DNA of 47,437 nt from Raillietiella orientalis (taxonomy: Eukaryota): NCBI GenBank assembly GCA_036172245.1, contig JAYWIR010000169.1, positions 1 to 47,437 on the forward strand, given 5' to 3'. The notes under the pieces are model-generated. The model was not told the DNA's origin. It saw only the letters and a list, made by a program, of their open reading frames with translations, and did no database searches. Both the position numbers and the translations under genes were made by a program. The stretch's first letter is position 1. The number at the start of each line of letters is the position of its first letter. Of the stretch, positions 24,790 to 47,437 are shown piece after piece.

Positions 24790-25025
24790 AAAGGAAGAAG
24801 CGCGCGAAGAGGGCTTTTATGAGCTGTTCCCGGGGTGTTCACGTGGTTTCCCGAGGGCCGTCGCCACGAATCGTTACCGCAACGGTCGTGGCAACGCAAT
24901 CCACCCAGCAGGTCTGAGAGAGACTCCGTTACCCGCGCTTGCTGCAGTTCGGGTCCACTCCCCGCCTCGGGTCCAGTGATGTCGGCGGGCGCTGCACAGG
25001 ACTCCCCAGCGTAGCTCCAATCTCG
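24790..25025 (-). mobile_element. Degenerate L1/Tx1 ORF2 C-terminal zinc-finger fragment
   Basis: LRWGVLCSARRHHWTRGG matches LHWGLPCNARRHHWT in other copies. Confidence 0.75.
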
Positions 25026-25029
25026 CCAC

Positions 25030-25554
25030 TCGAGAGGGAGGGCGCGGTTGTTCAGGAGCGCCGTTGGAGGGGCAGTCGGATTGGATCCGCCTGAGCATTT
25101 CCACGGGCAGGCGCTTCAAGTGGCGTGCCCGTGGGCGGATTCCCCGCGGCAAAGGTGTGGTTCTGGCCGCCTTCCAAGAGAAAAGGAAGCTCTTGACCCG
25201 TTCCTTGAGGCCAGGTAGGACCTCGAGCAACAACACTTTTGTTGCCCACTTCCTTCTGTCCCATCTTTTGGTTTGTTCCGCTCCAGAGGAGGCGAGATAA
25301 GAGGACGGAGGACCCTTTCTGCTGAGGAAGGCTCTTTCGGGCGCCTTAAGGGCTTGAGTGAGCTTGAAGGACACTGCAGCCCTTTGGAGGGATGCCGGTC
25401 GCGGATCAGGAGGATCCGATCTGCAGCTCCACTATTCCCAAAGGTGCGCCTCCCGATGGAGAGGTCATGGAACCAGTAGTGGCTCCGTAGAGGACGTCAG
25501 TGTTCCCGAATGCGATGGTGGAAACTCGCGTAAAGTTAGCAGCGCATGGGCGAT
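25030..25554 (+). mobile_element. Degenerate L1/Tx1 ORF2 fragment (post-YADD RT region)
   Basis: EGQSDWIRLSISTGR, NTFVAHFL..VCSAP and LKDTAALWRDAG match other copies. Confidence 0.75.
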
Positions 25555-26340
25555 GCTACCCGCATACGCCGGGATGTTTATTCAAACTCCTTCCGAAGTC
25601 ATAAGAGAACGTGGTACAATGCCCCACCAACTGCAAACATTCCGCCGGGACGCAGACCAGCCTGACTCTCCTCGGCAGTGGAAGGGGATGGGGGAAAAAA
25701 CAAAAAGAAAAATAAAACAATAAGACAAAAAAAAAAGAATTTGGAGGGCGGGGAAGGGATCACTGCCCACAGAGAGGACGGTCCATCCTTTGCAGGATGC
25801 CCTCGAGGTCCTCCTTTAATCCACCCAGCTGGGGCCATCCGGTAGCTCTCTGCAGGAAGCGAACAGCATACGGGATGACGTCCGTTGCGTTGGGATCTTC
25901 ATCTTCGGCTTCACTCCAGGCCACCACAACACCACGGATGCAGCAAAGTGCTTGCAGGGCTGCGGCTGGCGTCAGGGCATCTCAGAGAAGACTGTAAACT
26001 TCTCTAGGGGTTGCCGCCAACTGGTATTCCAAGGGTCTCCGCCATTTGGCCGTTGCGTAACAAGAGGGCCTGCTGCACAGATCACTTGCGAAAGAACAGC
26101 AGAAGCAGTCTCCACAAACGGATTCCTAGGAAGGAACACACTGTAGCCGGATTTCGACAATGATGGCAAGAGATGCCGACTGGGTGGCTGCTGTTAGTGA
26201 GACAGAGGAATGCCGCCGGACCGTCTGATGCAGAGACTGGCCACCTTGGAAAAGAGGAGCAGTGTTTGGATGGCTGCCTCATATGTGGGTGCCGGAAGCA
26301 ATACGCTGGGAACTCGGTTGGTGGTTCTAGTCCTACGGTG
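25555..26340 (-). mobile_element. Degenerate L1/Tx1 3' fragment with intact 3' terminus
   Basis: Reverse complement reads GAATAAACATCCCGGCGTATGCGGGT (~25558-25583), preceded by a T-rich 3' UTR and an ORF2 C-terminus (ALQALCCIRG..AGW..ILQR). Right boundary is approximate. Confidence 0.75.
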
Positions 26341-26615
26341 CAGCTTCCCTCTCTGCAAAGTGCGGGTCGGAGGTAACACGTTGAACCTCATGAGCTATGG
26401 ACCTATGAAAGTCGGATGGTGCCTTCCTCAGAAGATATCTGTAGAATGAAAAAAAATCACAAACGTTTGCTTCCTGAGATCCATAGAAAACCACAGGAAG
26501 ACGAGGGGGATGCTACCGTTTACAAGAATGCTGCAGAGTATGCTAAACGATCAACTTTGCTGTACCTTAAAACAAAAATGCTGAAGCTGTTTATTGACTT
26601 CTATCCTTGAAAGGG

Positions 26616-27911
26616 TCATAGAACTCTGCAGGAATAACAAAGGTTGAAGCTTCCTTGTATTCCTCGTGCGTTGTTATCCGTGTAGTAGAACAAGATCACG
26701 GCTTTACCTCGGTTGGAAACCACGGTGAGGCCGGCGGTGCTTGGACCTACGATCGTCAGGAGGTCGACGGGCGGAAGGTTCTGCCCATTTCTGCCGATCG
26801 AGACCTTCTCGTTGGTAAGAATGTTCACGTTAATCAAGGAGACGGTCACAAATTGGCAAGGAATCGACGGCTGCAAAGAGAATGGATTGCACCCTCAGAC
26901 CATCCTTTAATTCGAATTATGTAAGTCCATCGAGGCCGTCCCACCGCCCCCAAGCGATGCGAATTTGGAGAGCGAGTTTCAGCACGCAGGAGTGGAGCAA
27001 CGCGCGTCCGGAGCAACGAGGTTCCCGCCGGCATAAGGCCCGACGCGAGAACTCGTCGCTGGAAACCTAGGAAGCTTAAACTTTCTGTAAGCTGTCCCCC
27101 AGCTCAGTTGGAAAAACCCGCGCCGGTGCGAGGAGGCGTACGCTACTTCGCTCCAAGGGGCGTGCGAATCTCCGGCCAAGGGACATCCGGCGAGATTACC
27201 TGATTTCGGGTTAGCAAACACGCTCGGCACGTACCCGTATGAGGAAGGATAGCATTTGCTGTGGAACCGGCAGCTGCTGCACCAGGGAGCGGGAGATCGT
27301 TCTCGTCTGCCGGCGGAATTGGGACGAAACCTGGAACGCGTTGTTCACCTTACTCAACGTCAGCCGGAAGCCACGCGCGGCTACAGGCGCCTGGAATCTG
27401 ATCATCGTGGGTAGGAAGAGCTGCACGTTGGGGAAGGTAGGCAAATCTCCTCGAACCCCGACTCTGGAAGGGACTCCCTCCGGTTAACTGCTTTGGTGCC
27501 CGGGCGAGGTGCGTGTCTTGGCGGCGCCGGCGGTCCAGCTGGATCCAGCGAGCGCAAGGCGGCGCGGAATGGGTACACACAAATCTTACACTCTTTTGCG
27601 CAAGATGTCCTCCAAAGTGAGCATGCCACCTGCTCCTAGTACGAAGCGGTTATCAAAGCTCCCAAAGACGTTCTCAGGAGCTGTCCAGATGTTGGTTGGC
27701 TGGATGGAAGTTGTAGATAGTCCCCAGCAGCAACTCCGCTGTTTACCTGAAGACCCAAAGTGCAAGCCGTGTTCGCAGGAAAGTCGTTTGGGAAGTTGGG
27801 AGTGGAGAAGACAACGGTGTTGAATCTTCCTCCGACATTGGCGTTCAGAGTGCATCCACCAGTCAGACTTTGGACGATGAAACGATCTTGGAAAATAGTC
27901 TGGCCAGGCAC
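26616..27911 (-). pseudogene. Disrupted multi-CUB-domain protein fragment
   Basis: CUB-like motifs in separate frames: FSTPNFPNDFPANTACT (27636-27911), RFQAPVAARGFRLT (27211-27444), VILFYYTDNNARGIQGSF (26616-26876). No clean exon chain found. Confidence 0.55.
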
Positions 27912-30900
27912 GATGAAGTTTGTAGAGTTTCCGTTGCCTCGCAGGGAGTGCGTTCCTCTCTGGTCAGGTAGATACTGGTCGGCTCGACCCTGGAAGACTT
28001 TGCCTGCAGATAGCGAAGATGCGAGCCCTCCCGTCTTCTATCCCGGTATCATCGAAGCAATTCAGTATGAAGTGCGTAGTTTGCTCGAAGAGGGCAAAGT
28101 ATTGCAAGCGAAGCGATTCATTTTGCATCACCGGAATTGTTCCTGAGTGTAGTATTAGATGCTCCCTGATCTGTACAAGTGACTTTCTCCTTCCGCGATA
28201 TGGGAATATCAGGTCGCGAATCTCCCAGTGTAGGAATCGAGAAAGAGGCGGAAGGACCCTATCTGAGTGATCCGTAGGCACTCTGACATCCACCTTCCGT
28301 AATATGGAGGGTAAGTTATGTGCAGGTTTATAGACGCGCCAAGGAATAACTGAACGGCGCTAACTCTCAACCTCTTGGAACCTCATAGATCATGGAAACC
28401 GCGAAATGGAAGTGCAATGGAGCCTCGCATGGTTCGTTCAACGGGTTGTCCTCGTGGAGACGATTGCAGCTCCGCAAGAACGCGATGTGCCAACCACTTC
28501 ATTTCTCTGCATCCATTACGGAAGAAAGAAAACTCGAGGACGTGGCGTTGACGAAGGAGATTCTCCGTTCTTCTGTGTTTTCGCACTTCTCTCTAAATCA
28601 CGTCAGAAAAGAAAAATCAATGGATCTGCAGAGGATCTGAATTTAGAGCTCGAATCTGCAAATACATAGCTGGAGAGAAACCGATGATGCGAAACGGTGA
28701 CCATGTCTTCGAGAGCGCGTCTCTTCATCGGGGAGTCGTCCAGGGCAGCCGTCACCGCCACCTCGATCGAAAGCGTACTCGGCAAATCTCAGGCGTGGCA
28801 ACAAAGGATTTCAGCACAAATTAACGGAAACACTCAAATCTCAGATACCAAAAACAAGCATGAGAGGATTCCGAGAATCCATCGCTGAACCAGGAGGACC
28901 ATGTCGCCGCAGATCCACACAGCACCAGCTTCTTTGGTTTGCACACTGGTGAACTGACTTGCTCTTTACACCTGAAAACCTCGCAGAGATTTATAATTCT
29001 TTTGGAAACGTGGATAGCGTGTGAGAAAGCCGTTATAAGGCGAAACTCCTTCGCGACACGAGCCGCTGATGGTCGATTTTGGGTGGCATCAGTCGTCGGC
29101 TGACGTAGCAACTGAAGATTTGCCGCCTCCTCGAGAAGCGCACTCTTACTGCAGGAGATCACCTGACTGCTTTGCGTGGTGGCATTCGTAGGGCTCTCAG
29201 CAGCCCCTGCGCTTCCGTCTCGTTCGTACTCATCTGTTTTGAAATGGGAGCCGACGTCATCGCATATCTTGCTCTGCGAGGAGGACGTGATGTTTGGAAA
29301 CGTTATGCCGAAACCGTTCGTTTTCCGTTCTGCCTCTATTCGTCAGGCAACCTTCTGCGTTTTTTTCGTCTTAATCAGTTCAGAGTTTTTGCATAGCAGC
29401 CCCGGGCTTACTAGGTCATCCTCTTCACAAGCTTCTTCGTTGCGACGTGGTGTCCACCAAGCGTCCTCAGGGTGGGCAGGGTCCCGGCCGGCAGGACGAG
29501 GATCCACCGTCATTGCGTTGCGTCCACTGTACGAGGGTGGACGATATCCATTCTTCGAATGACTGCCACCTCACCGCCGGCACTTCGGCTTGTACGGGCT
29601 TCCGCGCATAGACAAGGCCCCACTGAAAATGGGGCTGTGGTTTCCTGGAGAAGACCAGTTCTGGGGAAAAGAAGGTTCTCCCTGTTCCTTCATCTTCGCC
29701 CTTCCGTGCAGGCTGCTGACGTGATGGAGCGCTCATGCCAACACACGAAGTAAAGAAGGAGAAGTGCTGCATGGCCAGCAGCAAGAGGAGAGCGATTTGC
29801 GCTCTCTTCTCGCGCGAAACCACAAATCCACGCGTCCCATGTACACCTTGAGCGCGCGCGCACTCCGGCTCTATCTGGGCTTTTTTAGGTAGACGCGTGG
29901 AGGCAGAAAGATTGTGAACGCCTGAACTCGCGCCTTACAAGCTCTGCAAGTCCAAAATTCCTGTTTTTCGTTGGCATCCTTTTGGGTCTCCCAGATCGGG
30001 AAACTCATTCCGCATTTTTCTCCTCCACAGCCTGTTCACAGTGGGGAATCGAAAGAAACGTAAAGCACCTTTCGCGAAATTCCAGGAATGCTTCGTGGAA
30101 TAGCGTACTATGTTGTGCTGACGATCGCTATGCAGATCCGAAAAACAGGAGATGCGCTCTGCTCTTTCCGATCAGCTAGGGTACCTCTCTTCTCTAACCA
30201 AGGAAACCTACGGAAAAGTGGGTAGCACGCGTCTGATCACCATGTCAACCGCTGATGCTCAGCTGCTGGAAAAACTGTGAGCTGAACGATCGGGAAGAGT
30301 GGCACCAATCATTTTGAACCCAGAGCGGGCCTTTGATGTACCCTGTGGAAGTGCGCAAGACCGAACTTCTCTTCGGCTAAACCTTGTTTCAGATGCGCTC
30401 CGGTGTGTAGGTGAGAAGAGATTTACGTCTTGGTACTCGAGTTGTGCTGATGTAGGACGAACGCGAGTCCTTTCAGTAATCATTCGACCCTCATATGGCA
30501 TCTCAGTGCGTTGACCAGGAGCTTCCTCTGTAGCTCCAGGAGCGCACGTGCTTCCTGGACAGTTTGAGGCGTTTCTGCGGCGCGGCGCGTTGATCAACGT
30601 CTCTTTCAGTAGGAAACTCGTCCATGGCGTACAAACACGGCACGAAAGGAAACACCAATGCGTGAGGGACAATAACCAAGGGACAAGGGACAAGACCCTG
30701 AGCAATAACCATGGCGTCGATGGTCATTGCAAGGGCATGCATCCGTTTGACGTGACTGCATCGACGAGCGCGTCAGGTGATTACGATCCCAGGCAGATTC
30801 GTGAACCCAGCCGTCGTTGAGCGTCATTTCATTTGGAAGAAAGTTGCCGTCAGTGCCATATGAATGCCATGACTCCGCTCGTGTAATTTCCATGCAATAC

Positions 30901-31014
30901 TTGTCGGCACCTCACGTCCGCGGAAGGCGTACGTGCCAATATTTCCTGGTGCAGGAAGATCCATCAGCAGCTGATCATTCCCGACGACTGCAATGACTTG
31001 CATTGAAGGGAAAA

Positions 31015-32180
31015 TGGAGTCTACTCTTCATATGGCCAACTGCATCCCCAAAGACACTCCGGCAGAAAAGCTGCGCAATTGCTTTCTAGGGTATAAGCCT
31101 GCGCCAGCCCTGCAAGTCGGAACGTGAGTCTCAGAAGCCGAAGAGACCCATATAACATCGGTGCGAGGGGGATAAACCGGTACTTAAGCAGAAGGAGGGC
31201 AGCGTGGAAACCCAGGATGGGAATCTGTCACGCCCGGATATCGCATTGTAGTTAACCCCCATGGAGGAGGGTCAGCAGCTGGTTGACGCACCGGCACTTC
31301 CGTTTATCAGTCGACCTCAAGAAAGGAGGGTGAACCGATACGAGAAGCGCCTCCCTTTCCCAGCGTCTCGCCTTATTCCTCCAGCCGCTAAAAGGGAAAA
31401 GGCGAAACGAGTGGAGAAATCCAAAGCGAAGGATAATAAAACTGGCCAGCCGAAGCAGCCAGCGAACGAAACTTCTTAACAGACGTCAGAGAAGAATCAT
31501 TCCAAAGACGTGGAAGAAGAGGGCTGGCAGCTTGTGAAGACCAAGAATGAAAAAAAAAATAGAATTTGAAAATGAGACGGAAAAAACTGCGGATTCGGAG
31601 AAGGCGTGGCCAGCAGCACAGTTTTTCTGCAGATTCGCATGTTTTCCAGACGCACTAAGGTTGAGCTTCTCGCTGAGAAAAATCAGAGGGCCAAGTGCCA
31701 GGTCTGGCAGTGCGGAGCAGCTTGCCTGCTGGACGACAAGGGCCAGGAATGCTCGGCCCCAGCCGAAGTACGCCGCATTGTGAGACGCTACTGCTCCTCC
31801 CTGTACGCGAAAGCCTCAAAGGACGACATTCTCTCGGAGATACTCCTGTCGCGAAAGGCGGAGACTCGCGCCAACTAAACAACTGGCGACCGATCACCTT
31901 GGTGAACTCGGTCGTCAAGTTGTTTTCCAAGCTGTGGGTCACGCGGCTAGGAAGTATCGCGGAATCTGTGGTGAGCCCGGAACAAACCTACGCGGTTCTT
32001 GGACGATCCATAGAGACGAACATCCTTTTCGTGAGTACCTGGATGCAGCTGCAGGAAGTCGTAGCGCGGAAAAGCCTGGCTGCAGCGAACGTCGCAGCTG
32101 CAGGCAAGAACAGGCGCCGACGGCAGGAGGAAACGCCAGGTGCCTTCGCGGTCGCACTAGACCTCCACAAGGCGTTCGAT
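31015..32180 (+). mobile_element. L1/Tx1-clade retrotransposon, copy H (ORF1 remnant joined to post-APE linker and RT N-terminus, ending at HKAFD)
   Basis: ORF1-like EEEGWQLVKTK (~31515), then GFGEGV..FLQIRMFSRR..LLDDKGQEC, NNWRPITLVN and AVALDLHKAFD ending at 32180. Left boundary is uncertain. Confidence 0.82.
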
Positions 32181-34288
32181 TTCCACCCGGATTTCGCCGA
32201 AGCGTTTATTGTAACAATAAACTTTAACAAAGACGTGCAGTGGCTGGACCATTGCTCCAGCCACGCACGAAGTAACACAGAGCCTGCCGGGTCACCGATT
32301 CGCAGACCGGTACGATCCACCACGGCAGCAGGGGAAGGGGTAAAAAACAGAAACCAAAACAAAAAGAAAAGAAAAAGTGGGAGGGTACGGGAAGGGATCA
32401 TAGTTGCTGGTGGGGCCGTTGCATCCTTTGCAGGATGCCGGCAAGCTCTTTCTGTATTGCTGAATCCAGGTGGGGCCATCTCGACGCTCTCCTCAGGAAC
32501 TGATAAGCTGGCTGGATGGCACCCTGGTCGCATTGTCCTCCCGTAGCCTTGCATCAGGCGGCGACGATCCCGCGAAGGCAGCACAAGGCTGCTAACGAGG
32601 CCGCTGGCCGAAGGGCGTCGGCAACAAAGAGGGCTTTCAGTACGTCCCTGGGGTTGTTGCAGGGGATTCCGATGGCCGCGGCAAAGCGGAACCAAAGAGG
32701 CCGAAGGGCAACACAATCCACAAGCAGGTGGGGGAAGGACTCCCGTTCCCCACACCTGACGCAATTGAGGTCCACCGCTCCCCAGGTCCAGTGGTATCGG
32801 CGGGCGTTGCAGGGGCGTCTGCAGTGCTGCAACAGAAGAGCCGACTCCTGCCATTTTAAGGGGAGGGTGGAGGTGTTCATCAGTACCAGGGGTTACTTCA
32901 AACGTTTAATGGGAACCTCGAGCAGCGCGCCCCAGCGCAGAAGTCCATTGGGAGGCGTACTCGGGGTGGCAGCGTCAGTTAGCTGACCTGTCTTCCACTT
33001 TCTTATCTTCTTCTCCTTCCCAGAGATTGTTACTGTAACCTCCCACTCCGCCGCAACATCGCTATCCAGATCTTCCATCAGGGAGGATAGCGCAGCAGCG
33101 AGGGGGGTTCTTCCTGCCCGCGCTCTCTTCTTTGGATCCTCCAGGATCTCGCGGAGCGTGCAACTTCTGTAAACCCCAAACAGGAACCTTCGTTCCTGTT
33201 GGGAGCGTTGCATGCCGAACTGTCCCCACGTTCCAACGGTTTCCTGCAACCAGGCACTACCGTTCAAAGGGCGACAGGTGACCAGTCCTGGGGTTTTTCG
33301 TGTCAGCGCAGCCAACTTGCGTAGCTGGAGTCCGCATCGGTTGACGCGACGATGGAATGCAAAAAACGACGTCAGTCCCGTCTTGCCGGTGGCTTGCTGG
33401 AGAAGGAGACGTGCATGGACGCACCAACAGATGCACCACAACTCTGGAACAAGTGCCGACAATCGGAACTGGAGCTGAAGCTCCAGCGGCTTAAATGTCA
33501 GGAGGCCGAGACCACCGTCCGGACGCGGAGCGCACAAGTCTTTTAAGCGGACACGGGCCCACCAGTTGCCCCAAAGAGCGATACAGAGGAGGTCCTTTGT
33601 CCGCTTTTTAATTCTCTCTGTGGGGGGGCAAACAAAAAGCAGGGGGCGGAGGAGAGGAGCCGCGAACGTGTTCCAAATCGCGGCCCGTTCAGGCAGGAAA
33701 AACCTGCCGCCTCGGAACGGGCCGATCGCCGTCTCGACTTTCTGGAGGCAGCTGGATCACGCTTCCGCAAGGGAGTAGTTCCTCAACGGCACACCAAGGT
33801 ACTTAGAGCACCTCGCCGTGGGGATCCATAGACAGACCCAGTACTTCTGCTCTGCCCACGCCGCAACTACTGGCACCACCGACGACTTCGCTCTGTTTAC
33901 CTGTAGCCCGGCTTCACGGCTAAGCAGATCGAAGAAGTCCTCGACTGCCGCTGCCGGGGTGGACATCGGCAACAAGATCAGAATATCGTCGGCATACGCT
34001 ACTACGGCGGGCGTGCCGGGGCACGAGCTCGGAAAGAGAGCCAAAGTCACCCTTTACGCTCTCAGCACCAACTCAAAGTAGGTGCTAAAGAGCAGGGGAC
34101 TGAGGCTCTCTCCGTGCCTTATGCCTTGTCGCACCGGCACGCCATACACCTTCTGACTGCTGAAAGAGATGGTAATCCTCGCGCTCCGCCAGCAAGAGCG
34201 CAGGTAGGAAATCAGGAAGGGTAAGAAGCATATGCGACCCTGGACCTTCAAGAGGAGTTCATGGTCTACACAGTCGAATGCCTTGTGC
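32181..34288 (-). mobile_element. L1/Tx1-clade retrotransposon, copy I (HKAFD to 3' end)
   Basis: Starts rc GCACAAGGCATTCGAC (34288). Contains YADD, KYLG and CVRCGERESFPHLLVDC. 3' end rc AATAAACGCTTCGGCGAAATCCGGGTGGAA (32181-32210). Confidence 0.9.
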
Positions 34289-36169
34289 GCTCTAGGGCGG
34301 ACGTGTTTTCTCGGTGCTCCTCGTGCCAGGAAGTCTCCCCCAGTTCAAGCGTCGTGTGGTTCGGTGGTCGATCAGGCAGCGATGCCTGACGCGACCACCA
34401 GGGATGGCCAGGGGGCGGCGGCAACGTCGCCCCCAGAGGTGATGGAGGTGGGGGCATCCGCCCCCGCAGAATCGGTTCCCGCTGCAGCGCGGGCGTGGAG
34501 CGCCGTTGTGTCGGCGCCATCGCCTGCAGCCGCGGCGGAATTGTCGGCCTATGTGGAGGAGGGGTACAACCCCTCATTGTTCTACAAGGTAGGCAATTTA
34601 TATTCTTTAGAGAGCGCGCGCGCCTTCTCGAAGGGCATGCGCGCTCTCGATGTGAAAGAGGAGGAGCTTAGCGCTATGACCATCTGCAGCGGGGGTCAGT
34701 ACGTTGAGGTCATCTGCAAGCATGCAGAGCTGGCCCAAAGACTGCTTAAAACACCCGTTGTGATGGGGACGCACAGGCTCCTCCTCACTACGGCGGAATG
34801 CAGCATGGTGGTCCACCTGTTAGACGTAACCGCGCGAATGCGCAAAGAACAGGTTCGCGCCGCTCTGGAACAATTTTGAACGGTCCGCGCGCAGTGGACG
34901 AAAGTAAGTCCTTTCGAGGACTACACGGGCTGCAACACGGCCTCACGGCTGCGCGCGTAAACGTTCGGGAGGGCTGAACTCTTCCCTACAAACTGGTGGT
35001 CGATGGCAAAACCGTCGACATATGGTATGTGGGGAAGCCGAAATATTGTGGCTTTTGCAATACGTCGGGCCACCTCAAAAAGAGGTGTCACAACGTGTAG
35101 TGCCAAGTATGCGGAACCAGGGACATACGAGGAAGGTGTGCCCTTAAGCAGCAGTGTGAGTGGTTTCCAAGAGAAACCTTAAAAAACGCGCCCGGCTGCT
35201 GAAGAAAAGGCTTGCGGCGAAAGCTGCCGCGAAGGCTGTGCTACCCGCGCCCAAGGCCCAGGTCGCACCCGAGACCCCGGAAAACAACGCCGAAAAAGTC
35301 GAGGGATCTGGCCAGGAGCCTGGGTGGCAGGTGTCAATGGCCAAAAAATCAAAGGAGAGAAGGTTGTAGAAAAAAATCGCCTACCAACAAAAGAAGAAAG
35401 AGCAGGGTAGCGCGAAAATTGAAGAGTGCAGCGTCGTCGTCGAACGCGTTCCCGAAGTTGCCGAACGCTGCCAGAAAGAACTCGCTGCTACCGACATCCA
35501 CCCCTCTGTTGACTCTGTCAACAGCGTGGGGAGCGTGCCGGCGGCGATATCCGTCATCGACATCACTATCAATGACAGCCTATGCGCAAACGGCGGCGGA
35601 TCTGGCTGCGTCGCTGCAGCCATCCCCCTCTAAGGCAAGTAAGAAGGCCGCAAGGCGTCCAGCCTCCCCTCAGGAGTCCCCCACTTCCGGCCCCGAGGCG
35701 GAGGCCGGAAGCGCAGCCTCCGTTTTCACGGCGCCCCGCAAGAAGGATGGACGTATGTCAGAAAAGCCGAGGAATATCGTCTTCCCCGTGGAAGGGGAAG
35801 AGATGACATCCGGAAGCGAGAATGCCATCAGCGTGGGAAACTCGCGGGACCCGTCGCCCGAGAGACTTCCACGCTAGGACACGGAGGGGATGGAGGGGTG
35901 GAGGCCAAACACGTGCCTCAGGTGCCTGAGAAGGCCGAAAGCCCCATGGACATCCCGCCCGCCTCGCAAGAGGCGTGCTCCCCCACACCTTTATCTTCCC
36001 AGGAGTAATGTCGGGAATCTCCCGCCATCGTCTGCGCATCGCCGTTTGGAAAGTGAACGGCATGACAGACGGCGGAAGGGGACGAGACATGGGCGCCCTT
36101 CTGGAATCCTTCGACCTTGCGCTGCCTCAGGAGATCCACGTGATCTCTACAGAACAAACGCAAGAGATT
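34289..36169 (+). mobile_element. L1/Tx1-clade retrotransposon, copy J (5' end, ORF1, spacer, APE N-terminus)
   Basis: 5' GCTCTAGGGCGGACGTGTTTTCTCGG. ORF1 is homologous to copy B and ends at 35877. ORF2 starts at ATG 36008 with LRIAVWKVNG..LPQEIH (APE N-terminus). Confidence 0.9.
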
Positions 36170-36657
36170 TCTCACCCGGTCACGACAAGGCGTTTATTTC
36201 ATATAAATTCAACAGAAACAATTATATAAAACAAACCAGTTAAGGACCATGCCTCCAACCGGCGACGGCACAAGTATCAAGAGTACATTGCTGGCACGCA
36301 TGCCAGAATAACACAGAACGGTTTGTGGGAACTGGGAGAACAAACAAACAAAAACAAAAGAGTAAGAAATCAACTGGCGACGCCGGGCAAGGGTCTTTGG
36401 GATCGCTCTGGTTTGCTCCGGGATAACAGTAATGGCACCATCTTTTAGCAGAGCAAGCGGGTAAAAGGTATGAATGGGCTTTAGGACGTCGTGGCCACCG
36501 GATTAAGCCGTTCCTAAAAGTCTGTAAACCGGCGGTGGATGCCGGCGATGTCATCTTTGACCTCGTCACGAAGATGAGACCACCTAGCAGCGCTTTTCAT
36601 GGATTCTGCTGCAAACCGGTGAGCCTCCTTTCGCTGCGCTGACAACTCCAGAGCGTT
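36170..36657 (-). mobile_element. L1/Tx1 3' terminal fragment, copy K
   Basis: Reverse complement encodes NALELS..AARWSHLRDEVKDDIAGIHRRF (compare copy A, GGIHRRF). 3' end rc AATAAACGCCTTGTCGTGACCGGGTGAGA. Confidence 0.85.
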
Positions 36658-37852
36658 TAAGCAGAGCGTGCACTTGACCCGTTCTCAGGAGGCGAGTTCG
36701 TCTTGCCGGAACGGGCCAGCATTCTGGAACACCTTCGTTGCCCATCTCCTCTGCCCCCTGTTTTTTGTTTGTTCACCCCCTCAGGAAGTCAAAGTCTCCG
36801 CGCAGAGCCTTCTACGCAAAGCGTTGTGGGGCGCTGCAACATCCCGTGTTAGACTTAAAGACTTGGTGGCGCCGCGTCAGGATGCAGGCTTGGGCATCCT
36901 CGACTTAAACAGCATCGAACTGCAGGTGCAGTTTCGCATGCTGCGGCTCTGTGCCAAGCTGTGGTGTACGCCGTGGTGCTTACCCGCACGCCTTATACTG
37001 AGGCGCTGCACGGGAAGCGAGGGACTGCTTTCGTTGCTACCCCACTTTCGGCACACCAGAATAGTGTTTGGCTTCCCGCTGAGGCAGCTGTCCTCACTGC
37101 TGGAAGCCCAATGTTGGATCTCCTGCTGCCCCGTGAACATCAATGCATGGCGGGAGGAATTTTTTTCATCGTGGGCAGCTTCCGAAGGAACGCGCTTGGA
37201 AGATCTTAGGAGCCTGCGACTTCTCCTCAGTCATCCAATGGACAAAGTCATGCAGGACAAGAAGAAGTGGGATCCTATGGCCTCTATATTACTCGCCGCA
37301 GCGCTGTCTGCCCTCAGGGCAAGCAACGACAGTTGCCTACCGGCGAATTAAGAGTTCTCCTGCTCAATAGCGAGAGTCAGTAAGCTTCTCGGCTGCTGGA
37401 CGACAAAGGAACTGGTGGAAACTGCCACTTCTCATAATCGGGCGAAGGGCCTGCTTCGGTGGAGTGAACATTTAAGTGTACCCCGCGAAGAGATAGTGGT
37501 CCCCATCGTTTGTTTGAACAGCTCCGTGTTCCCCCTAAAGTGGAAACAAGATGTGCTGCTATTTTTACATTGTGCATTACACTGTAATAGGCAGCGAAGC
37601 ATCGTTTCCGGGGGAGCTGCTTTGCCAAACTGTTTAAGGTGCGGAGAGATCGAATCTTTTCCGCACCTTTTGCTGGACTACGGTGACCTCCGTGAACTGT
37701 GGCGAAGGCTGATTTCAGCCATCCTGCCGCAGGGAGGAACTGCAATGATGTGCTGCGGCGCTTCTTCAGGAGGAATGGATTTTCGGTAGTCGCGATTGTC
37801 GCAACCATGTGTTGCATTCGCTCCATCGTGAAGGCCCGCTACGCCCTGGAGT
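36658..37852 (+). mobile_element. L1/Tx1 ORF2 C-terminal half, copy L (both ends broken)
   Basis: FWNTFVAHLL..LKDLVAPRQDAGLGI, CLRCGEIESFPHLL, ending at IVKARYALE. Confidence 0.88.
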
Positions 37853-40841
37853 TTTCACCCGGTTACGCCGAAGCGTTTATTCCTAAACACTTTGTTTTCG
37901 CGGTACGAGGCCCCGTTACGGCCAATAGTTCTTTGGACCTGCCGGGAAGCCGGCTCGCAGGCCGGCTTGACTCTCCTCGGCAGCGGAGGGGGTAGAGGGT
38001 AAAAACGAAAAGGAAAATAAAAGAAATAAACGAAAAGAAACTATTTGGAGGGCCGGGAAGGGATCACAGCCCGCTGGAGGAAGAGACCATCCTTTCGAGG
38101 ATGCCCTAGAGGTCCCTCTTCATTGTTCCCAGATGGTACCAGCCGATCGCGATTCGCAGGTATCGACCAGCGTGTACGATGGGATCCCTGTTGCTGCTTC
38201 CTCTGTTGGCTGCGCTCCACGCGGCCACAATCCCTCGAAGGCAGCAAAGTGCTGCCAGGGCTGAGGCTGGTGTCAGGGCGTGTCGCACGAAGAGGAGTCT
38301 CATAACGTCTCTGGGGGTGCTGCCTACCGGCATTGAAAGGTTCGTAGCAAAACGTTCCCACAAGGGCCAGAAGGCTGCGCAGTCCACTAACAGATGGGGG
38401 AGGAATTCCTTCTCCCCGCACACTGCACAGTTCTGTTCAACATTCCCCAACGTCCAGTGGTGGCGGCGCGCGTTGCAGGGAAGACCCCAGTGCAACGACA
38501 ACAGCGCCGTTTCCTGCCACTTTAGGGGGAGGATGGATGAATCAATGAACGACGGGGGCCACTCTAGGTCATCCTACGGGATGCCAAGCAGCTCGTCCCA
38601 TCTCCGTAGTCCATGCGGGTGAACTCTTGGGGTCGCGGCGTCAACCAGTTCCCTCATGGTCCACCCAGTCAGATCCTTCTCTTTGCCCGCTATCCGGCAG
38701 GAGACTTGCCATCTCGGCTTCCGAATATTTTGGAGCGTCCTCCGTAGGAAGGGTAGCGCCGTGGCCAGTGGGGTCGTCTCCGCCCATGTGCTTCTGGCGG
38801 GACACACGATCATGTTCCGCAGCGTGCAGCGGGTGTAGATGCCGGTACGCAGGCCGTTGCAGGATTCTTCACTGATATTCTTTATCTTTGCCCACGTTCC
38901 AACTGTTTCTTCCAGCCATGCGCTGGAGTTGGCGGGGCTGCAGGTCATCCACGCGTTCTCCTTTGCCAGGGTGGCCATGAGTCCCAGGAGAAGTCCGCAT
39001 CTTCTTTTTTTCCGGCCGGGGCACAGAAGAAAAGACGCGAGTCCTTCAGTCCCGGACACACGTCTGGCGAGAAGGAGGGCCGTTACGCACCACCGAATGT
39101 TCCACATTTTCGCTGCGATGGCTAGAGTACGCCACCGCAGCTGTGTTTCCATTCTCTCTATCGTCAGTACGCTGAGACCTCCGTCCCGACGTAGAGCGCA
39201 CAAGTCTTTTGAAGGCACACGAGGCATCCCGCCGCCCTACAGGGCGATACGTAGGAGGTCCTTTGTTCTTTTTCTTAATTCACGGGGTACGGGGCAAACA
39301 AAAAGCAGGGGGCGAAGGAGGGGGGCCGCGAACGCGTTCCACACCGCGACCCATTCCGGCAAGTGAAGCTTGCCTTCCAGGAACGGGCCGATCGCTGACT
39401 CCACTTTTTGGAGACGACCTGACCAGGCTTCTGACTGACAGAAGTCCCCTAACGGAATTCCGAAGTACCTTAGGTACCTGCCCGTGTGGATCCCCAGGCC
39501 GATCCAGTCGGACTGCCCCTCCCACGTCGCTCCCACCGGAACAACCATGCTCTTGCTCCTGTTGACGCTCACGCCAGCACCGCGACGGATCAACTCAAAG
39601 AAGTCTTCAAGCGATGTCGCCGGGGTGGACATGGGCAACAGGAGAAGCAGGTCGTCGGCATACGCTGTCACGGCTCGCGTACCTGGGCAGGAGCTCGGCA
39701 GGTTGGCTAGCGTCAGCCTGTAAGCCTCCAGCACCAACTCAAAATAGATGCTGAAGAGCAGCGGGCTTAAGCTATCACCCTGCCTAATTACTCGTCGTAC
39801 CGGCACGCCGTACACGCGACAGCCACTGAAAACAATGGATGTATTCGCGTGGTGCCAGGAGGAGCGCAAGTACGCCAACAGGGATGCCGGAAGACCCAGA
39901 CGTTCCAAAAGCTCAAGAAGAAGCATTTGGTTCACGCAATCGAATGCTTTGTGCAAATCGACTGCAACCGCCAAGGCTCATGGTGTCTCCCTTTGCGTCC
40001 CGCGCCTTCGTCGGTGAGAGATCGAAGGCGTCGCTTCCGCACGACGATCCACCGCCACACGATGCTGCAATTGCAGCCATGTGCGGATGAACAAGAGATT
40101 CGCGTCCCAGGAACAGCGTACGTCTGCTCCGGACTTACCAAGAATTCCGCGATCCTACGCATCCGCGCCACTTAAAGTTTCGAGAACAACTTGACGTCCG
40201 AATTCACTAATGTGATCGGACGCCAGTTGTTCAGTTGGCGCAAATCTCCTCCTTTCGGCAGTAGACGCACCTTCGCTGAGCGAAACGAAGCGGGGACATC
40301 GTCCGAGTCTCGCATCAGCGACGAGAGTTGGAGCACCAGGGGGATGAGCTCCGCCGCAAAACACTGGAAGAATTCCGCAGGGAGCCCATCTTCGCCTGAC
40401 GCTTTTCGTCTCTTGAGCCCCGAGATGGCCGAGGAAATTTCCTCTGTCGTGAAGGGCTCATCAAGACGCGCGCGTTCCTCCTCGTCTACAACAGGTGCAT
40501 CACTCGGCAGAAGCAGCCGGGAGAGGCTGCGTTCCGTCGGTGCCTCTGCATACAGAGAAGAGTAATAGCGCCTGACTATCCGTCGCACATCGGCTGGAGC
40601 CGAGCATTCCCGGTCCTGGTCGTCGAGCAGAACTGTCGCTCCAGACTGCCAGACCTGGCGCTCGGCCTTAACCTTGTACTCGGATAATCGACCAACGTCC
40701 GCACGCCTGGAAAAGGAGCGGGCCTGCAGAAAATCTCTGCTGTTGGATACGCTCTCTCTGAAGCCGTGCGGAAGCTGGTGCAAGGGAAACCGGCAGCAGA
40801 ACTCGCGGACCGATCTTTTCAGATCGTCCCAGTCCTCGAGC
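37853..40841 (-). mobile_element. L1/Tx1-clade retrotransposon, copy F (post-APE linker to 3' end)
   Basis: ORFs 40172-40843, 39237-39974 (DLHKAFD, QGD, YADD), 38574-39227 and 38106-38501 (CAVCGEKEFLPHLLVDC). 3' end rc AATAAACGCTTCGGCGTAACCGGGTGAAA. Confidence 0.92.
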
Positions 40842-43800
40842 AAGAGCGGACGGGTTTTTGTTTCGCTCTTGAGCGTTTGTGGTTTTATGTTTTTCTCTTT
40901 TTTTTCTTGGTGTGCCAGTGGATTCGGTGGTGGCTAGGCAGCAATGCCTGGGACCACCACCAATGTTAAGGAGGGGTGACGTCTATGTCGCCTCCTGAAT
41001 CAATGAATGTGTGGGCAGCCGTCCACAGAGAAGCGACTCCCTCGCTAGGGAGAAGCTGGAGTTCCGTGGCTGCGGCGCCAACGCAAGCGCCTGCGGCTGA
41101 GTTAAAAGCCTACCTGGAGGAGGGATACAATCCCCCTCTACTCTACAAGGTAGGCAACCTTTACTCCTTTGAGAGTGCACGTGCTTTCTGGAAAGCGATG
41201 CACTCCCTCAAAGTACTTCAGGAGGAGCTCTTGGAAATAATCATCAGGAGTGGTGGACAGTACGTTGAGGTGATTTGCAAAAAAGCAGGTCTTGCCCAGC
41301 GTCTGCTCCGTACACCTGTTCCTTTAGGGAATCTCCGGCTCCTCCCCATCACGGAGGATAGATCTATTGTGATCCACCTCCTCGGAATCACCTTCCGGAT
41401 GGCCGAGGAGGCTGTCCGACAGGAACTAGTTAAATTTGGAACTGTCCACGCGTTGTGGAAAAGGCCGACTCCGTTTTGGGAGTACGATTTCCTGAATTGC
41501 GGTATGGCTTCCGCGCGCATCACGGTCCGCGAGGGTTGATCCCTTCCTAACAAGCTGGAGGTCAACGGCGAACCCGTTGACATCTGGTATGTCGGTAAGC
41601 CGCATTTCTGCGGGCATTGCAGCAATTCAGGTCACCTGAAAAAAAGGTGCCCCCACTTGCAGTGCAAGCAATGCAAGCAACCCGGGCACACTCTTCCAGT
41701 GTGCCCGCAAAATGAAGTCCGCGTCGCGTCCGCACTGAATGCGAAGAAGCGCGCGGCGAGAAAACGAAGAGTTCAGCCAGCCCGAGAGAGAGCCGACGTT
41801 TGAAAGACAACAATCATGCCCCAGGTAAAGGTCAGCTTCGAGATCTTGGAAAACTCGGACAAAGTCGAGGAGAACGGCCAGGAACTTGGATGGCAGGAAA
41901 GAGTCAGGATGGGCAACCTGACTTCCGGAATGTCCGCCGCTAGGAAACGGGATGGTTGGGGAGGGGAGGGAGTCCTCGCAGTCGCAGTCGATTTGCATAA
42001 AGCATTCGACTGTGTCGACCAGAGGCTCCTCCTGGAGCTCCTGGAACGCTTGGGCTTCCCGGTCTCTTTGCTGACCTACCTGCGATCCTGCTGGCGCGAC
42101 GCGCTCATCCAGATCTTTTTCAGTGGACACACCGTGCACGGCGTACCGGTGCGACGCGGCATACGTCAGGGAGACAGCCTGAGTCCCTTGCTCTTCAGTA
42201 CCTACTTCGAGTTGGTACTGAGAGCGTACAGGGGAAATCTGGCGCACCTGCCGCGCGACTATCCCGGTACGCCCGCGGTGTCAGCATATGCGGACGACCT
42301 ACTGCTGCTGCTCCCTACGTCCACCCCGGCATCGGCGGTCGAGGAGTTCTTCGACCGGCAAAGTCGGAAAACCGGGCTTGAGGTGAACAGGGCGAAGTCG
42401 TGCGTCATGCCAATCTGTGCGGCGTGGGCAGGGCAGCCGGACTGGGTCCGTTTGGGGATCCCCACGGTACGGTACTTCAAGTACCTCGGTGTGCCGTTGG
42501 GGGACTACTCCCCTGCGGAAGCGTGGTCCGGCTGCCTTCAAAAAGTAGAGACGGCGATCGGCCCGTTCCAAGGCGGCAGGTTTTTCCTGCCTGAGCGGGC
42601 CGCGGTTTGGAACATGTTCGCGGCTCCTCTCCTCCGATTTCTGCTATTTGATTGTCCCCACACCACAGAGACTAAAAAGCAGACGAAGGACCTCCTAAAG
42701 ATTGCCCTGTGGGGTAATGGGAGGGCCCGAGTCCGGCTTGAGGACTTGAGCGCTCCGCGTCGGGACGGCGGTCTCGGTCTCCTGACGCTAGAGCTGCTGG
42801 AGCTCCAGCTCCACTTTCGGTTACTCGCCCTAGTGGCGAAATATTGGAGTAGCAGTTGGTGCGAGCCCGCACGTCTCTTCGTCGAGCAGGCTACAGGCAA
42901 GCTGGGACTGTCATCCTTCCTTGCGCTCCGTCGGCGCCGCCAAGTCGGTCACTGCGGGTTGAAGCTACGGAGAGTGGCTGACCTGATGAGAAAGAACGCA
43001 GGATTGCTCTGCTGTTGCCCCGTTAACGAACCTGCATGGCTGCAGGAAACGGTTCAAACGTGGGCAAGGAGCAACGAGCAACGCACCCAAGAAGGGCAGA
43101 GACAATTCTTCGCCCGTAATGACCGCCTGACGCTCCGGGAGGTCCTAAAGAACCCCCAAAAACGAGCGTGGGCAAGAAAAACTTCCCTCGTTGCAATGCT
43201 GTTTCCGCTCGCGGAACATTTAAACAGCAACACTGCTGCGAAATGGGATGTTTACATCAAAATCTCCGGTACGGAGAAAAAGATCGGGGAATGGAAAACG
43301 GGAATTCTCTGCGATACCTCGCCCCGGACTACCACCCTTATTAGACTTTTGCGCTAGGGCGAGCTGCTTAATGTTCTGCAAGAACAATTAAAGTGTCTTC
43401 CGGTGCTGATGAACACCTCCATCCTCTCCTCAAAATGGCAGGAGTCAACGCTATTGTTGCTGCATTGGGGACTCCCCTGCAACGCCCGCCGACACCATTG
43501 GACCTGGGCAGCGGTGAGCCCTAATTGTGCGAGGTGTGGAGAATGGGAGTCCCTCACTCACCTCCTTTTGGATTGTGTAGCTCTTCGGCCCCTTTGGAAC
43601 CGTTTTGCCGCGGAAATCGGTAACCTCTGTGGCAACCCCAGAGACGCAATTAGATCCCTGTTCGTTTGCGACGCCCTTCGGCCCTCGACCGCGTTAGCAG
43701 CTCTGTGCTGCTTTCAGGGGATCGCGGCTGCATGGAGCAAAGCAACGGGAGGACGTCGCGATAAGGGTGCCGTCCAGTGCGCAGCCGAATTGATGCGGAC

Positions 43801-44113
43801 GGCGACAGGATGGACCCATCTGGATTCAAACATCCAAAAACAGCTTGCCTGCATCCTGCAAAGGATGTAACGGTTCCACAGCAGACTGTGATCCCTTCTC
43901 GTTTCCCCCAGATCTTGATTTTAAATTTTTTTTTTTTGTTTTATTTTTTGTTTTGTCCTTGGCCCCTCTGCTGTCGTGGTGGACCGTGCCGGAATATGAA
44001 TTTATGACCCGGCAGGCTTAATTTTGTATACCAGTGCGTGGCCAGACCACTGGTCAGCCACCAACGTTGGTTTTATTTTAAAGAATGAACGCCCCGGCGC
44101 AACCAGGTGAAAA
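40842..44113 (+). mobile_element. L1/Tx1-clade retrotransposon, copy E (both termini present; internal deletion of APE and RT N-terminus)
   Basis: 5' GCGGACGGGTTTTT. ORF1 40976-~41900 with CGHCSNSGHLKKRC. Joined in ORF 41816-43357 to AVAVDLHKAFD..YADD. CARCGEWESLTHLLLDC in 43403-43870. 3' AATGAAcgcCCCGGcgcaaCCAGGTGAAA. Confidence 0.92.
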
Positions 44114-44184
44114 TCATAACTCAGCAAGAAACTACTCGCTTTGCCACGCTGGCGGAGCGAAGGAAAAGCACGTCCTCTCTGCAC
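44114..44184 (-). mobile_element. Isolated 5' terminus of an L1/Tx1 copy (O)
   Basis: rc GGACGTGCTTTTCCTTCGCTCCGC matches the copy D 5' end CGGACGTGCTTTTGCGTCGCTCCGC. Confidence 0.7.
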
Positions 44185-44368
44185 AGCGGGGATTCGGGGA
44201 CGGATTCAGGAACGAGCGGTCATACCTTCAGGCCCGCAGTTATTCCAGGCGTCCCGACGTCCGTCGCCTGGCAGAATTCAAGGCTGAGGCGGAGAGGCAG
44301 GCCTGGCAGTCAGGCTCGGACTGCTTGCTGGACCATCAGGGCTAAGAACGCTCCAACCCAGCTCAGGT
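44185..44368 (+). mobile_element. Short ORF2 linker fragment, copy M
   Basis: RGFGDGFRNERSYLQARSYSRRPDVRRLAEFKAEAERQAWQSG..LLDHQG. Confidence 0.85.
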
Positions 44369-46518
44369 TTTTCACGGGGGTAAGCCGGGGCTTCTATTAC
44401 TAAGATTTCGAGATTACAAAATTTTGTAATAAAGTCTTTGTTGTTGAAATTTTTTTTTTTTAGGACGTCAGACGTTTAGTAGAGAAGTACAGTAGCACTT
44501 GTTTTTACCGATCCGGAGGCCGATAAGGTCCTTCACTGGCGCCGGGGAGAGAAAAATAAAAAGAAAACAAAACAAAAAAAGAAAAACGTCTAGAAAACAA
44601 TGTTTTTGGGGAGAAGGAGGGAGGGAGGGGATCACCGTGCGACGTGAGCAGGCCTTTGCATCCGGTCACGGGTGCGAACAAGTGCCGGCAAATTTTTTCG
44701 AAGTCGCCGCCAACGGCACGCTTTCTACAAGGAGATCGCTTCCCAGTGGATAACATTCCGGGTGGTCCTTCCTCTCCTAGACGCGGTCCACTTCTCCAGG
44801 ATACCGCGTATACAGCAGAGCACTGCTACGCTTTCGGAGGCTGGCAAGCCGTCTGGCGTCAGAAAGCGTCTGAATAAATTTTTCGGGTCACCCCCCGGAA
44901 TGTTGAGGATCGACGAGAGTCTGTCCCACATTTCGTGGAGGGCAACACACTTCAGAATCAAGTGGAGGAAATTCTCCCTTTCCCCGCACTCTGCACAACT
45001 AGCATCCACATTCCCCGATGTCCAGCGAGACAGGCGTGCTCTGCTTAGAAGTCCCCAGTGGAGCAGATGCAACGATGTCTCCTGCCACTGCAGAGGAAGA
45101 GTGCCGTTGTCCCATGACGCTGGGGGCCACTTCACCTCCTCCGGAGGTATACCGAGTAGCGCGCCCCAGCGTAAAAGTCCGTTCGGCGGGACACTCGGGG
45201 TACTAGCGTCCTCTAGTTCCCTCGGCGTCCACGCCTTCAGTAATTTCTTCCTGCCTCCGATGAGGCAGGACACTTCTCACGATGCCTGTTGGTTGCTGTC
45301 CCGAACTTCCCTGAGGGAGGGCAGCACTGGGGTAAAGGGGGTGGAGGAAGCCCACAGAAGTTTCCGTGGGTTGGAAACGATCTCCTGGAGTGGCTGACCA
45401 GCGTGCCTCCCTCTGCGGAGGAAGGAGAAGTCCTCATCGCTGGTGCCATTGATCTTCGCCCATGCGGATACGGACTCCTGAAGCCAGGTAGTCCAGTCCG
45501 CTGGGATGCAGGAGATCCAAGGGTTGGCTCTCTTCAGAGCAACCAAGTCCCGCAGCTGATAATCACAATGGTTCAGGCTGCGTTCGTTGGCTACCAGGAT
45601 TGAAGTCAATCCGAAGCAGCCGGTTGCCCTGTGAGCAAGGAGTCTTGCTGGTGCAGACCAGGGTGCTGTCCAAAACTTTGCTACAAGGGCAAGTTTTCAG
45701 AATTGGAGCATTCGCTCCATGCGCTCCAACGTCAGGAGACCAAGTGCACCGTCCCTGCGTAAAGCGCACAAGTCTTTGAGCCAAACGCGGGTCCTCCGGT
45801 TGCCCCAGAGGGCTTTACGTATAAGGCCCCTAGTCCGTGTCTTAATTTGGTAAGGTGTAGGGCACACAAAAAGTAGGGGGCGAAGGAGGGGGACCGCAAA
45901 AGCGTTCCATACCGTGGCCCGTTCCTGCAAGTGGAACTAGCCGTTTCGGAACGGGCCGATCGCCAGCTCCACCTTTTGTAGACGGTCGGACCAGGCTTCT
46001 GCAGAGCAGAAGTCTTCCAACGGAACGCCAAGGTACTTGATGTACCTGCCCGTGGGGATCCCCAAGCGGATCCAGTCCGACCGTCCGGCCCTCGTCGAGT
46101 CGGTGAAAAGCAACGACGATTTCGTCCTGTTTACCTGGAGGCCTGTCCCACGGTATAGCAACTCTAAGAAATCCTCGAGCGCCGATTCCGTGGTGGACCC
46201 GGGAAGCAGGAGCAGAAGATCGTCGTTATAGGCCGACACGGCAAGCGTGCCGAGACACGAGCTCTGCAGGGTTGCCAAAGTCTCCCTGTATGCTCTGTAC
46301 ACCAATTCATTGTAGATGCTGAAGAGGAGGGGGCTGAGGCTGTCAGTCTGTTGGATGCCACGACGAACCGGCACGCCGAACACGTGCCGGCCGCTGAAAT
46401 TGATATTGATGAACGCGAAGCGTTAGCAGCAGCGCAGGTAGGCCAGGAAAACAACCGGAAAACTCAAGCGTTCCAGGAGCTCCAGAAGAAGCTCCTGGTC
46501 GACGCAGTCGACAGCTTT
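44369..46518 (-). mobile_element. L1/Tx1-clade retrotransposon, copy G (KAxD to 3' end)
   Basis: Starts at KAVDCVDQELLL, then GIQQTDSLSPLLF, YNDD, KYLG and CAECGERENFLHLILKC. 3' end rc AATAGAAGCCCCGGCTTACCCCGTGAAA. Confidence 0.9.
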
Positions 46519-47437
46519 TGGCCCAAGGTCTGCTTCAATCCCCCATGGTAATGGGGACACGCAAACTACTTCCTATTACGGCTGACCACAGTATGGAGGT
46601 CCACCTTTTAGGAGTTACCGCGCGGATGCGGAAAGAACAGTTACGCGCCGCGTTGGGAAAAGAAGGCACGGTCCATGCAGTATGGACCAAGCCTAGTCCT
46701 TTCGAGAACTATACCACAGTTCAGTGCGGCTCCACGGCTGCCCGTGTGATCGTTAGGGAGGGCTCTACCCTTCCAAACAAACTGGTGGTCGGCGGAGAAA
46801 GCGTCGACCTCTGGTACGTGGGAAGCCCAAATACTGTGGCTTCTGGAACACGTCGGGACACCTCAAAAGAAGGTGCCCCAACGTACAGTGCGAAGTATGC
46901 GGGACAATGGGCCAAACGAAGGAACTGTCCACAATCCGCTGTGCGCGTGGTTTCCGCTAGGAGCATAAAAAAACGCACGCGGCTGCTACAGAAGAAACTG
47001 GCGGCGGAGGCTGCCGCTAAGCTGTGCCACCCACTCCCGTGGTCCAGGCCTCAGCCGACACCCCGGCAACGAATGCCGAAAAGATTGACAAAAGCGGTCA
47101 GGTGTTGGAATGGCAAGAAGTCACGGCGAAAAAGAAAGAAAAGTCGCAGAAAGAACGACGGATCGAAAAAAAGCTCGCCTACCGAAATAAAAAACAGCAG
47201 GTTAGCGAGAATTAAAAAGAATGCAGCCTCGTCGTGGGACGCGTCCCCGCCGAACGCCGCAAGGTAGAAATCGCTGCTACCGGCGAGCAACCCACTGTTG
47301 AAAATGTCAACAGCGTGGGGAGCGAACCGGCGGAAGCGTCCGTCATCGAGACCATGATCGATGACGCCACCTTCGAGTTTGCGGCGGAGGAGCTGGCTGC
47401 ATCGTTGCAGCCAGCCCCATCCAAGGCCAGTTGGTTG
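46518..47437 (+). mobile_element. 5'-truncated ORF1 fragment, copy N (related to B and J)
   Basis: LAQGLLQSPMVMG..VHLLGVTARMRKEQ..VDLWYVG, with frameshifted knuckles and a basic tail; runs off the window. Confidence 0.88.

Follow-up and report, generated by a model that had tools for sequence, protein, structure and literature searches.

In a contig of Raillietiella orientalis (JAYWIR010000169.1; 47,437 nucleotides, analysed over its whole length and referred to as the window), fragments of long interspersed elements (LINEs) lie next to one another on alternating strands, which raises the question of why each should have come to rest antisense to its neighbour. A preliminary description of the right-hand part of the window had listed eleven such fragments and ascribed their order to a chain of antisense insertions, with each newcomer entering the previous copy. 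We have mapped the fragments, their termini and their points of interruption and find that four of the interrupted copies are broken in the same codons of the reverse transcriptase (RT), which suggests that some of the elements home in on one spot of this gene. As best explanation of the locus we favour, as probable, the sequence- and orientation-specific insertion of Tx1/L1-like LINEs into older LINE copies of an invertebrate genome.

Strand order and architecture of the nest

Orientations were mapped by tblastn with five full-length LINE proteins and by nhmmer with twelve copies from the window as queries. The resulting strand order, H+ I- J+ K- L+ F- E+ (O-) M+ G- N+, where letters denote individual fragments, bears out the described alternation for the region between 31588 and 47437. 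The first fragment, previously placed from 31015 onwards, is LINE-like from 31588 only, with no LINE match found in 31015-31587 by nhmmer or in 30600-31700 by tblastn. The fragments meet at 32179/32180, 34288/34289, 36169/36170, 36657/36658, 37851/37852, 40845/40846, 44113/44114, 44175/44176, 44367/44368 and 46519-46522, and nine of the ten switch points agree with the earlier values within about four bases, the remaining one moving from 44184 to 44175. Conserved termini could be aligned at the 5' end in five copies, as (GC)GGACG(T/G)G(T/C)TTTT..CGCTCC, and at the 3' end in eight copies, as AATAAACG..CGGCG.AACCGGGTGAAAA. With these aligned termini we confirm that eight of the ten junctions place a conserved terminus against an internal break of an opposite-strand copy, the two junctions without a terminus being K/L and G/N.

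The outermost host of the nest is H (31588-32179, plus strand; detected by nhmmer and tblastn), which extends from the linker between endonuclease and RT (EN-RT linker) to RT motif A, carries a 245-nucleotide internal deletion at 31852 and ends with ...CACAAGGCGTTCGA within the HKAFD codons. It is followed by I (32180-34288, minus strand), in which the 3' half of a LINE is preserved; the 3' terminus, at 32180, is intact, and the copy is itself broken at 34288, precisely where its own KAFD site begins (sense GCACAAGGCATTCGAC). Next comes J (34289-36169, plus strand), comprising a 5' terminus, 5' untranslated region, open reading frame (ORF) 1 and the first ~55 codons of the endonuclease. J is 89.3% identical to copy C in the left part of the window (5974-7170, minus strand). 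Near the start of ORF1 the two differ by a repeat or indel of 41 nucleotides (34407-34447 versus 7010-7012), and a contig of a public DNA run, X1, has the same form, going back by 41 letters.

One of the strand switches lies within a single element. K (36170-36657, minus strand) contains the last 488 nucleotides including the 3' terminus and L (36658-37851, plus strand) the C-terminal part of ORF2, and both are collinear in the coordinates of copy B, where nhmmer places L at 928-2122 and K at 2155-2297. In run X1, which was compared with the window (0.13 share of words), one contig, from a look-alike copy of 90-95% identity, passes from 37845 directly into 36651 on the opposite strand, with eight letters shared, and another is collinear into the start of L. 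Because of this collinearity, in B coordinates as well as in the X1 contig, K and L are read as the direct and the inverted segment of one 5'-inverted element with the anatomy of twin priming, the end of L directly preceding the start of K in the RNA. Twin priming is a mechanism of 5' inversion in L1, and K/L shares its features, with inverted and direct 3' segments that adjoin in the RNA and a small overlap (6-8 nucleotides) at the inversion point, but this process accounts for one of the ten strand switches and not for the series. The K/L element is flanked upstream by the A-tail of F and downstream by J, having entered the F/J junction with the orientation of F.

The body of F (37852-40845, minus strand) runs from its 3' terminus at 37852 to the EN-RT linker and contains an intact KAFD site at 39939-39954. 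It is followed by E (40846-44113, plus strand), a complete insertion in which both termini are present and an internal stretch, from about element position 1056 to 3440, is deleted, and by O (44114-44175, minus strand), which carries the 5'-terminal motif GGACGTGCTTTTCCTTCGCTCCGC. O is not a separate element: it constitutes the 5' end of F, severed from the body of that copy when E was inserted, and its end, TCTTGCTGAG, repeats the first bases of F, TCTTGCTCGAG, as a duplication made by E. This target-site duplication of 10-11 bp is found as CTCGAGCAAGA (40835-40845) and CTCAGCAAGA (44120-44129), with six extra bases, TCATAA, after the tail of E. Together, F and O constitute a complete 3.0-kb copy with an internal deletion, inside which E is a complete insert. 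A same-strand nest of F and O in place of an internally deleted copy is less likely, as nothing of that kind is present after the 3' end of F. The suspicion that the internal deletion of E conceals a same-strand join could be rejected, since there is no terminus motif at 41916-41960 and the duplication flanks all of E. In F, about 55 nucleotides of the 5' end are joined to the EN-RT linker, and E was inserted exactly at that join. Large internal deletions occur in four copies, A (1-3529), H (31852), F (37852-44175) and E (40846-44113), among which A, F and E retain one or both intact termini.

On its right, the 5' terminus of F abuts M (44176-44367, plus strand), a 192-nucleotide piece of the EN-RT linker that hosts the 3' end of G. 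G (44368-46522, minus strand) is again the 3' half of a LINE, with its 3' terminus at 44368, and is broken at its KAFD site, where it is joined via 3-4 nucleotides of microhomology to N (46519-47437, plus strand). N is 5'-truncated, starting at position 442 of J, shares 74% identity with J and C and extends past the end of the window. The nest thus consists of H containing I, I containing J, J containing F with K/L at its tail, and F containing E; in its right part, M, which F abuts, harbours G, and G in turn harbours N. The simple chain of newcomers described earlier is not retained in this parse, as K and L belong to a single element, O belongs to F and E forms a side branch within F.

Alternation is also found outside this region. 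In a second nest at 1-9301, defined by nhmmer and tblastn, A (1-3529, minus), B (3529-5973, plus), C (5974-7170, minus) and D (7171-9301, plus) follow one another, and D begins exactly at its own KAFD site, joined to the 5' terminus of C; a further minus, plus, minus series lies at 24.8-26.1 kb. There are 7-8 independent host-insert relations in the first nest and three in the second (C in D, B in C, A in B). All of these are antisense and none is sense-in-sense, which under random orientation has a probability of ~2^-10 to 2^-11. Neighbours of the same direction are found at tails only, as K/L behind F and as a 13-nucleotide tail remnant behind D. Right after the 3' tail of D, positions 9302-9320 hold another 3' terminus, incomplete and of the same orientation (ACCCGGGTGAAAG, then AAAAAG), followed by AT-rich host DNA, which may be an aborted tail re-insertion or the remnant of an older element's end.

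The anatomy of the junctions, together with the target-site duplication of E, supports the earlier proposal of target-primed reverse transcription from nicks on the host sense strand. An intact 3' terminus lies at the left junction of each of the four inserts on the minus strand (I, K, F and G), and among the plus-strand inserts the 5' terminus is full in J and E and truncated in L, M and N. In this process, the host sense strand is nicked and the 3' end of the nick primes cDNA synthesis on the conserved ...CCGGGTGAAAA tail of the element; the inserts invariably keep their 3' ends, whereas their 5' ends are full in some and truncated in others. The GTT or ATT of the host that had been described to overlap the tail is clear at two of the five 3' junctions (K and F) but fails at I (host ..TTCGA) and E (host ..ATGA) and is ambiguous at G.

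A recurrent landing site in the reverse transcriptase

The position of breaks around motif A was mapped by alignment with the uninterrupted copies A, B, E and F and by a scan of the window for the site. Four hosts, H, I, G and D, are broken in the codons of RT motif A (..L H K A F D..), with I (34288), D (7171) and G (46519-46522) cut at the same KAFD nucleotide and H (32179) 14-15 bp further on. The 3' host pieces start with GCA(C/T)AA(G/A)GC.TTCGAC, and the 5' host piece, the end of H given above, is joined straight to the tail of I. Of the two cuts, the first lies after TTCGA on the host sense strand (sense GCACAARGCNTTCGA^C) and is seen at H with the tail of I, and the other lies 14-15 bp upstream on the host antisense strand, after ..GTGC, and is seen at I, D and G with the 5' ends of J, C and N. 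Pieced together from these different events, the geometry of the cuts would be that of a target-site duplication of 14-15 bp. The features of Tx1-type specificity are thus present as a single target sequence hit in one orientation in four hosts, with the fixed duplication deduced across different events.

Several observations mark these hits as separate events. The inserts C and J are 89.3% identical whereas their hosts D and I share 57.2%, and the hits at D and I are therefore independent and their junction was not copied as DNA. N lacks the leader yet meets G at the same host nucleotide, which argues for a boundary defined by host cleavage and not by the leader of the insert. The chance that two further breakpoints would coincide to the nucleotide in an element of ~5.6 kb is of the order of 10^-7. 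Within the window, nine KAFD sites are recognisable, of which four were hit. In copy A, an otherwise intact KAFD site carries a 9-nucleotide tandem duplication (AATGCTTTA; 1049-1072, minus strand).

We propose that elements of the J/C/N lineage, and probably I as well, recognise the KAFD sequence in one polarity by means of their endonuclease or of a different DNA-binding part. Given such recognition, every hit at KAFD would be antisense to its host, and repeated hits would result in alternating strands. The 5' inversion in K/L and the re-use of an earlier insert's A-tail as nick site, as in the case of K/L at the tail of F, also contribute to the alternation. The preliminary description had named endonuclease strand bias and homology-guided targeting among the candidate causes; at the four KAFD junctions, the data show sequence-specific targeting, and the other junctions are without a shared site.

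A search of the window revealed no second recurrent target. The starts of B and of a fragment at 30022 and the internal deletion of H fall on different element positions with no shared site, and the 3' flanks of sister lineages are unlike each other when comparing B with K/L, I with E and D with G. Two candidates were dropped: ..ATAAC.., shared by the 3' flanks of B and E, which are not sister lineages and show it at unmatched offsets, and a CYGGGT-like stretch shared by the 3' flanks of D and G, whose offsets do not match. As a more speculative extension, to which we would give somewhat less than an even chance, the window could house a guild of sibling LINEs that use the most conserved RT codons, each other's and perhaps their own, as a sequence-specific landing pad, hit in antisense every time, and that live almost exclusively inside one another in GC-rich alternating islands; the other junctions would then represent further lineage-specific sites.

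Weighing the explanations

A number of observations weigh against site-specific insertion as account of the whole locus. The site covers four of the ~12 junctions in the window, and five recognisable KAFD sites are intact. As no second recurrent site is found in the window, the antisense rule at the non-recurrent positions (F in J, E in F, G in M, B in C and A in B) is left unexplained. No KAFD insertion is contained whole in the window, and the duplication is assembled from one 3' junction (H/I) and three 5' junctions of other events. The flanks of F, J (endonuclease codon ~55) and M (linker), are ~0.77 kb apart in element coordinates, share no duplication and are not contiguous, for which a target deletion is a possible cause. 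Run X1 consists mostly of look-alikes of 90-95% identity, with 13 of 209 pieces at 99% or above, and junctions other than K/L are without independent assembly support. Finally, C and N (74.9% identity) have diverged to the same extent as D and G (75.1%), which would fit C with D and N with G each being one inverted element and would also suit targeting of the elements' own family.

The last point leads to a different origin of the head-to-head joins at KAFD. If the leader of J and C were to begin with antisense motif A, a full-length cDNA would end in the sense letters of this motif, and that end could anneal to the motif in a different copy or in the cDNA itself (twin priming or self-priming), welding a 5' terminus to a 3' half; C and D, N and G, and I and J may then each be a single inverted element. 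Besides the matched divergence, such an origin is favoured by the 16 letters upstream of J and of C, which in both cases are the antisense KAFD site. A true twin-priming inversion is found adjacent, in K/L, and the arrangement H/I/J fits a twin-primed insertion at the KAFD site of H in which the cut end of the host pairs with motif A of the incoming RNA. However, the pairing of a leader does not account for N, which has none and still meets G at the same nucleotide. With the identities of C and J (89%) and of D and I (57%) being so different, it is not possible for D/C and I/J alike to be single elements of the same family. D and G have their 3' ends away from KAFD sites, contrary to what would be expected for a twin-primed insertion at KAFD, and H/I is a 3' junction at the site that homology of the leader cannot make. 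Taken together, we regard such an origin of the joins as unlikely.

Insertion in random orientation followed by a later filter is a still weaker candidate, which we judge improbable. Nests of the same direction could have been lost by recombination between direct repeats, or antisense nests kept as a source of double-stranded or PIWI-interacting RNA (piRNA)-type transcripts. Animal piRNA-type clusters can be dense transposon piles, and such a pile is found here beside a VPS8 gene; moreover, the junctions outside KAFD are also all antisense with no shared site visible. Conversely, hosts and inserts are 47-75% identical and thus too diverged for efficient homologous deletion, which renders the proposed loss by direct-repeat deletion unlikely. 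Breaks at a fixed nucleotide in four hosts are not expected from a filter acting after insertion, and neighbours of the same orientation have survived at tails (K/L with F and the 13-nucleotide remnant with D).

It is very unlikely that the alternation results from DNA rearrangement, by inversions or palindromic duplication, or from chimeras of the assembly. The I/J junction does recur in reverse complement at 5981-7542, repeats of this kind are hard to assemble and run X1 offers no clear bridging support. In contrast, eight of the ten joins fall exactly at conserved termini, E has its target-site duplication, adjoining pieces on opposite strands belong to different lineages and are not copies of each other, and the two junctions of I/J type differ by 11% on one side and by 43% on the other. 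Chance or a nick bias from the base composition of the strands scarcely deserves consideration: L1-type endonucleases prefer T-runs, and these are present at some junctions (that of K, ..GAGATT, and that of K/L with the tail of F), but the suggested comparison of TT content argues against a bias, with TT and AA (1470 vs 1499) and TTT and AAA (435 vs 463) nearly balanced when counted in 14 pieces on their sense strands, T-rich sequence is absent from most nick sites (..TTCGA^, ..CTCAGG^, ..TTATGA^) and the probability of the series by chance is ~2^-10.

Genomic setting and relation to known elements

The window is composed of GC-rich flanks (1-9.3 kb and 24.6-47.4 kb; 52-60% GC) and an AT-rich centre between them (31-40% GC). 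Both flanks are stacks of diverged LINE copies, mutually 70-89% identical in local BLAST matches. Inside the AT-rich centre, Pfam searches identify plus-strand exons of an animal VPS8 gene (16449-21437), which encode the Vps8 beta-propeller and central TPR domains, with the LINE islands on either side. The single exon used in a protein search (21054-21437) has its best match, at 51% identity, in insects, and the VPS8 gene points to an animal as host. In the minus-plus-minus LINE triplet at 24800-26100, the right-hand minus copy has its 3' terminus at 25558, ~150 nucleotides past the last LINE-like match of the plus copy (25405), in a layout that echoes K/L/F. A second case of twin priming is not claimed for 24.9-25.6 kb, where the pieces are ~500 nucleotides apart in element coordinates. 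Except for a weak tblastx match at 27713-27808, neither LINE nor Pfam matches were found in 26.1-30.0 kb and 30.65-31.59 kb. These ~5 kb (26100-30000 and 30650-31587; 52-54% GC), which apart from the same interval also lack protein matches, could represent very old elements or repeats of a different type.

The domain content of the elements is that of LINEs, with an APE-type endonuclease at the N-terminus of ORF2 and an RT domain. PF00078 (RVT_1) matches seven of 31 ORFs scanned, four of them above the gathering score (best E 7.7e-18), the match of PF03372 (Exo_endo_phos) to the 690-residue ORF of copy A is borderline (E 2.8e-5, 24.4 bits versus a cut-off of 24.5) and PF13966 (zf-RVT) gives weak matches in three ORFs (E 2e-4 to 1e-3), every one below its gathering score. 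In a search of 5.8 billion proteins, the closest are at most 30% identical, with best matches at 24-30%, and the named ones include a 'transposon TX1 149 kDa protein' and 'pol-like' proteins of fish. The nest comprises at least four diverged lineages of APE-endonuclease LINEs, which appear to belong to the L1 group and whose nearest named relatives, by match ranking, are Tx1-like. Scans of metagenomes with the 5' sequence shared by J and C and with a degenerate 3'-terminus motif returned 0 loci each.

Two groups of described elements bear comparison with this locus. Target-specific LINEs of the Tx1 clade are described to insert into a fixed sequence, often within another transposon, with fixed duplications and tandem re-insertion at the same site (PMC4494074). 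Elements of this kind include Tx1L in the piggyBac element Tx1D, Tx1-Mar in Mariner-N4_AMi, Tx1-8_Crp and Tx1-4_AMi in long terminal repeat (LTR) retrotransposons, and Keno, Kibi and Koshi, and SINEU-3, thought to be mobilised by Tx1-Mar, is described with a duplication of ~16 bp, AGGTTCCCATCAGCAT (PMC4494074). The elements of the window are likewise animal LINEs with an APE endonuclease and overlap with these in their nearest named protein relatives, and by match ranking they are candidate members of the clade. They differ in their target, which is here the most conserved RT motif in the coding sequence of sibling LINEs and possibly of their own family, and in an insertion that is always antisense and builds nests of several levels. 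The Zepp and ZeppL LINEs of green algae insert into their own copies and form GC-rich nested clusters of mostly 5'-truncated elements (PMC3446292, PMC8226300). Newer copies have inserted into older ones to form clusters here too, whereas the algal clusters are described as tandem arrays of 3' ends, and neither a fixed antisense polarity nor a target in a coding motif features in the portions of these descriptions available to us; in the window, the strands alternate and the host is an animal and not a green alga. Full-text literature searches, whose coverage left out most subscription journals, returned no description of LINEs that target the RT codons of other LINEs or of obligatory antisense nesting of LINEs.

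Among the safe landing sites known for target-specific LINEs are ribosomal RNA genes, small nuclear RNA genes, microsatellites, telomeres and a few DNA or LTR transposons. By recognising 15 bp of RT-coding sequence in fellow LINEs, a LINE would, if our reading is correct, have found a new kind of safe haven, which would cost the host genome nothing, disable competitors or older relatives and be renewed as a target by each insertion. The same behaviour would account for compact GC-rich LINE islands in an AT-rich genome and would provide a natural APE-type endonuclease with a long and defined recognition site. With the fixed antisense polarity, copies of both orientations come to lie next to each other in such islands, which could feed small-RNA silencing.

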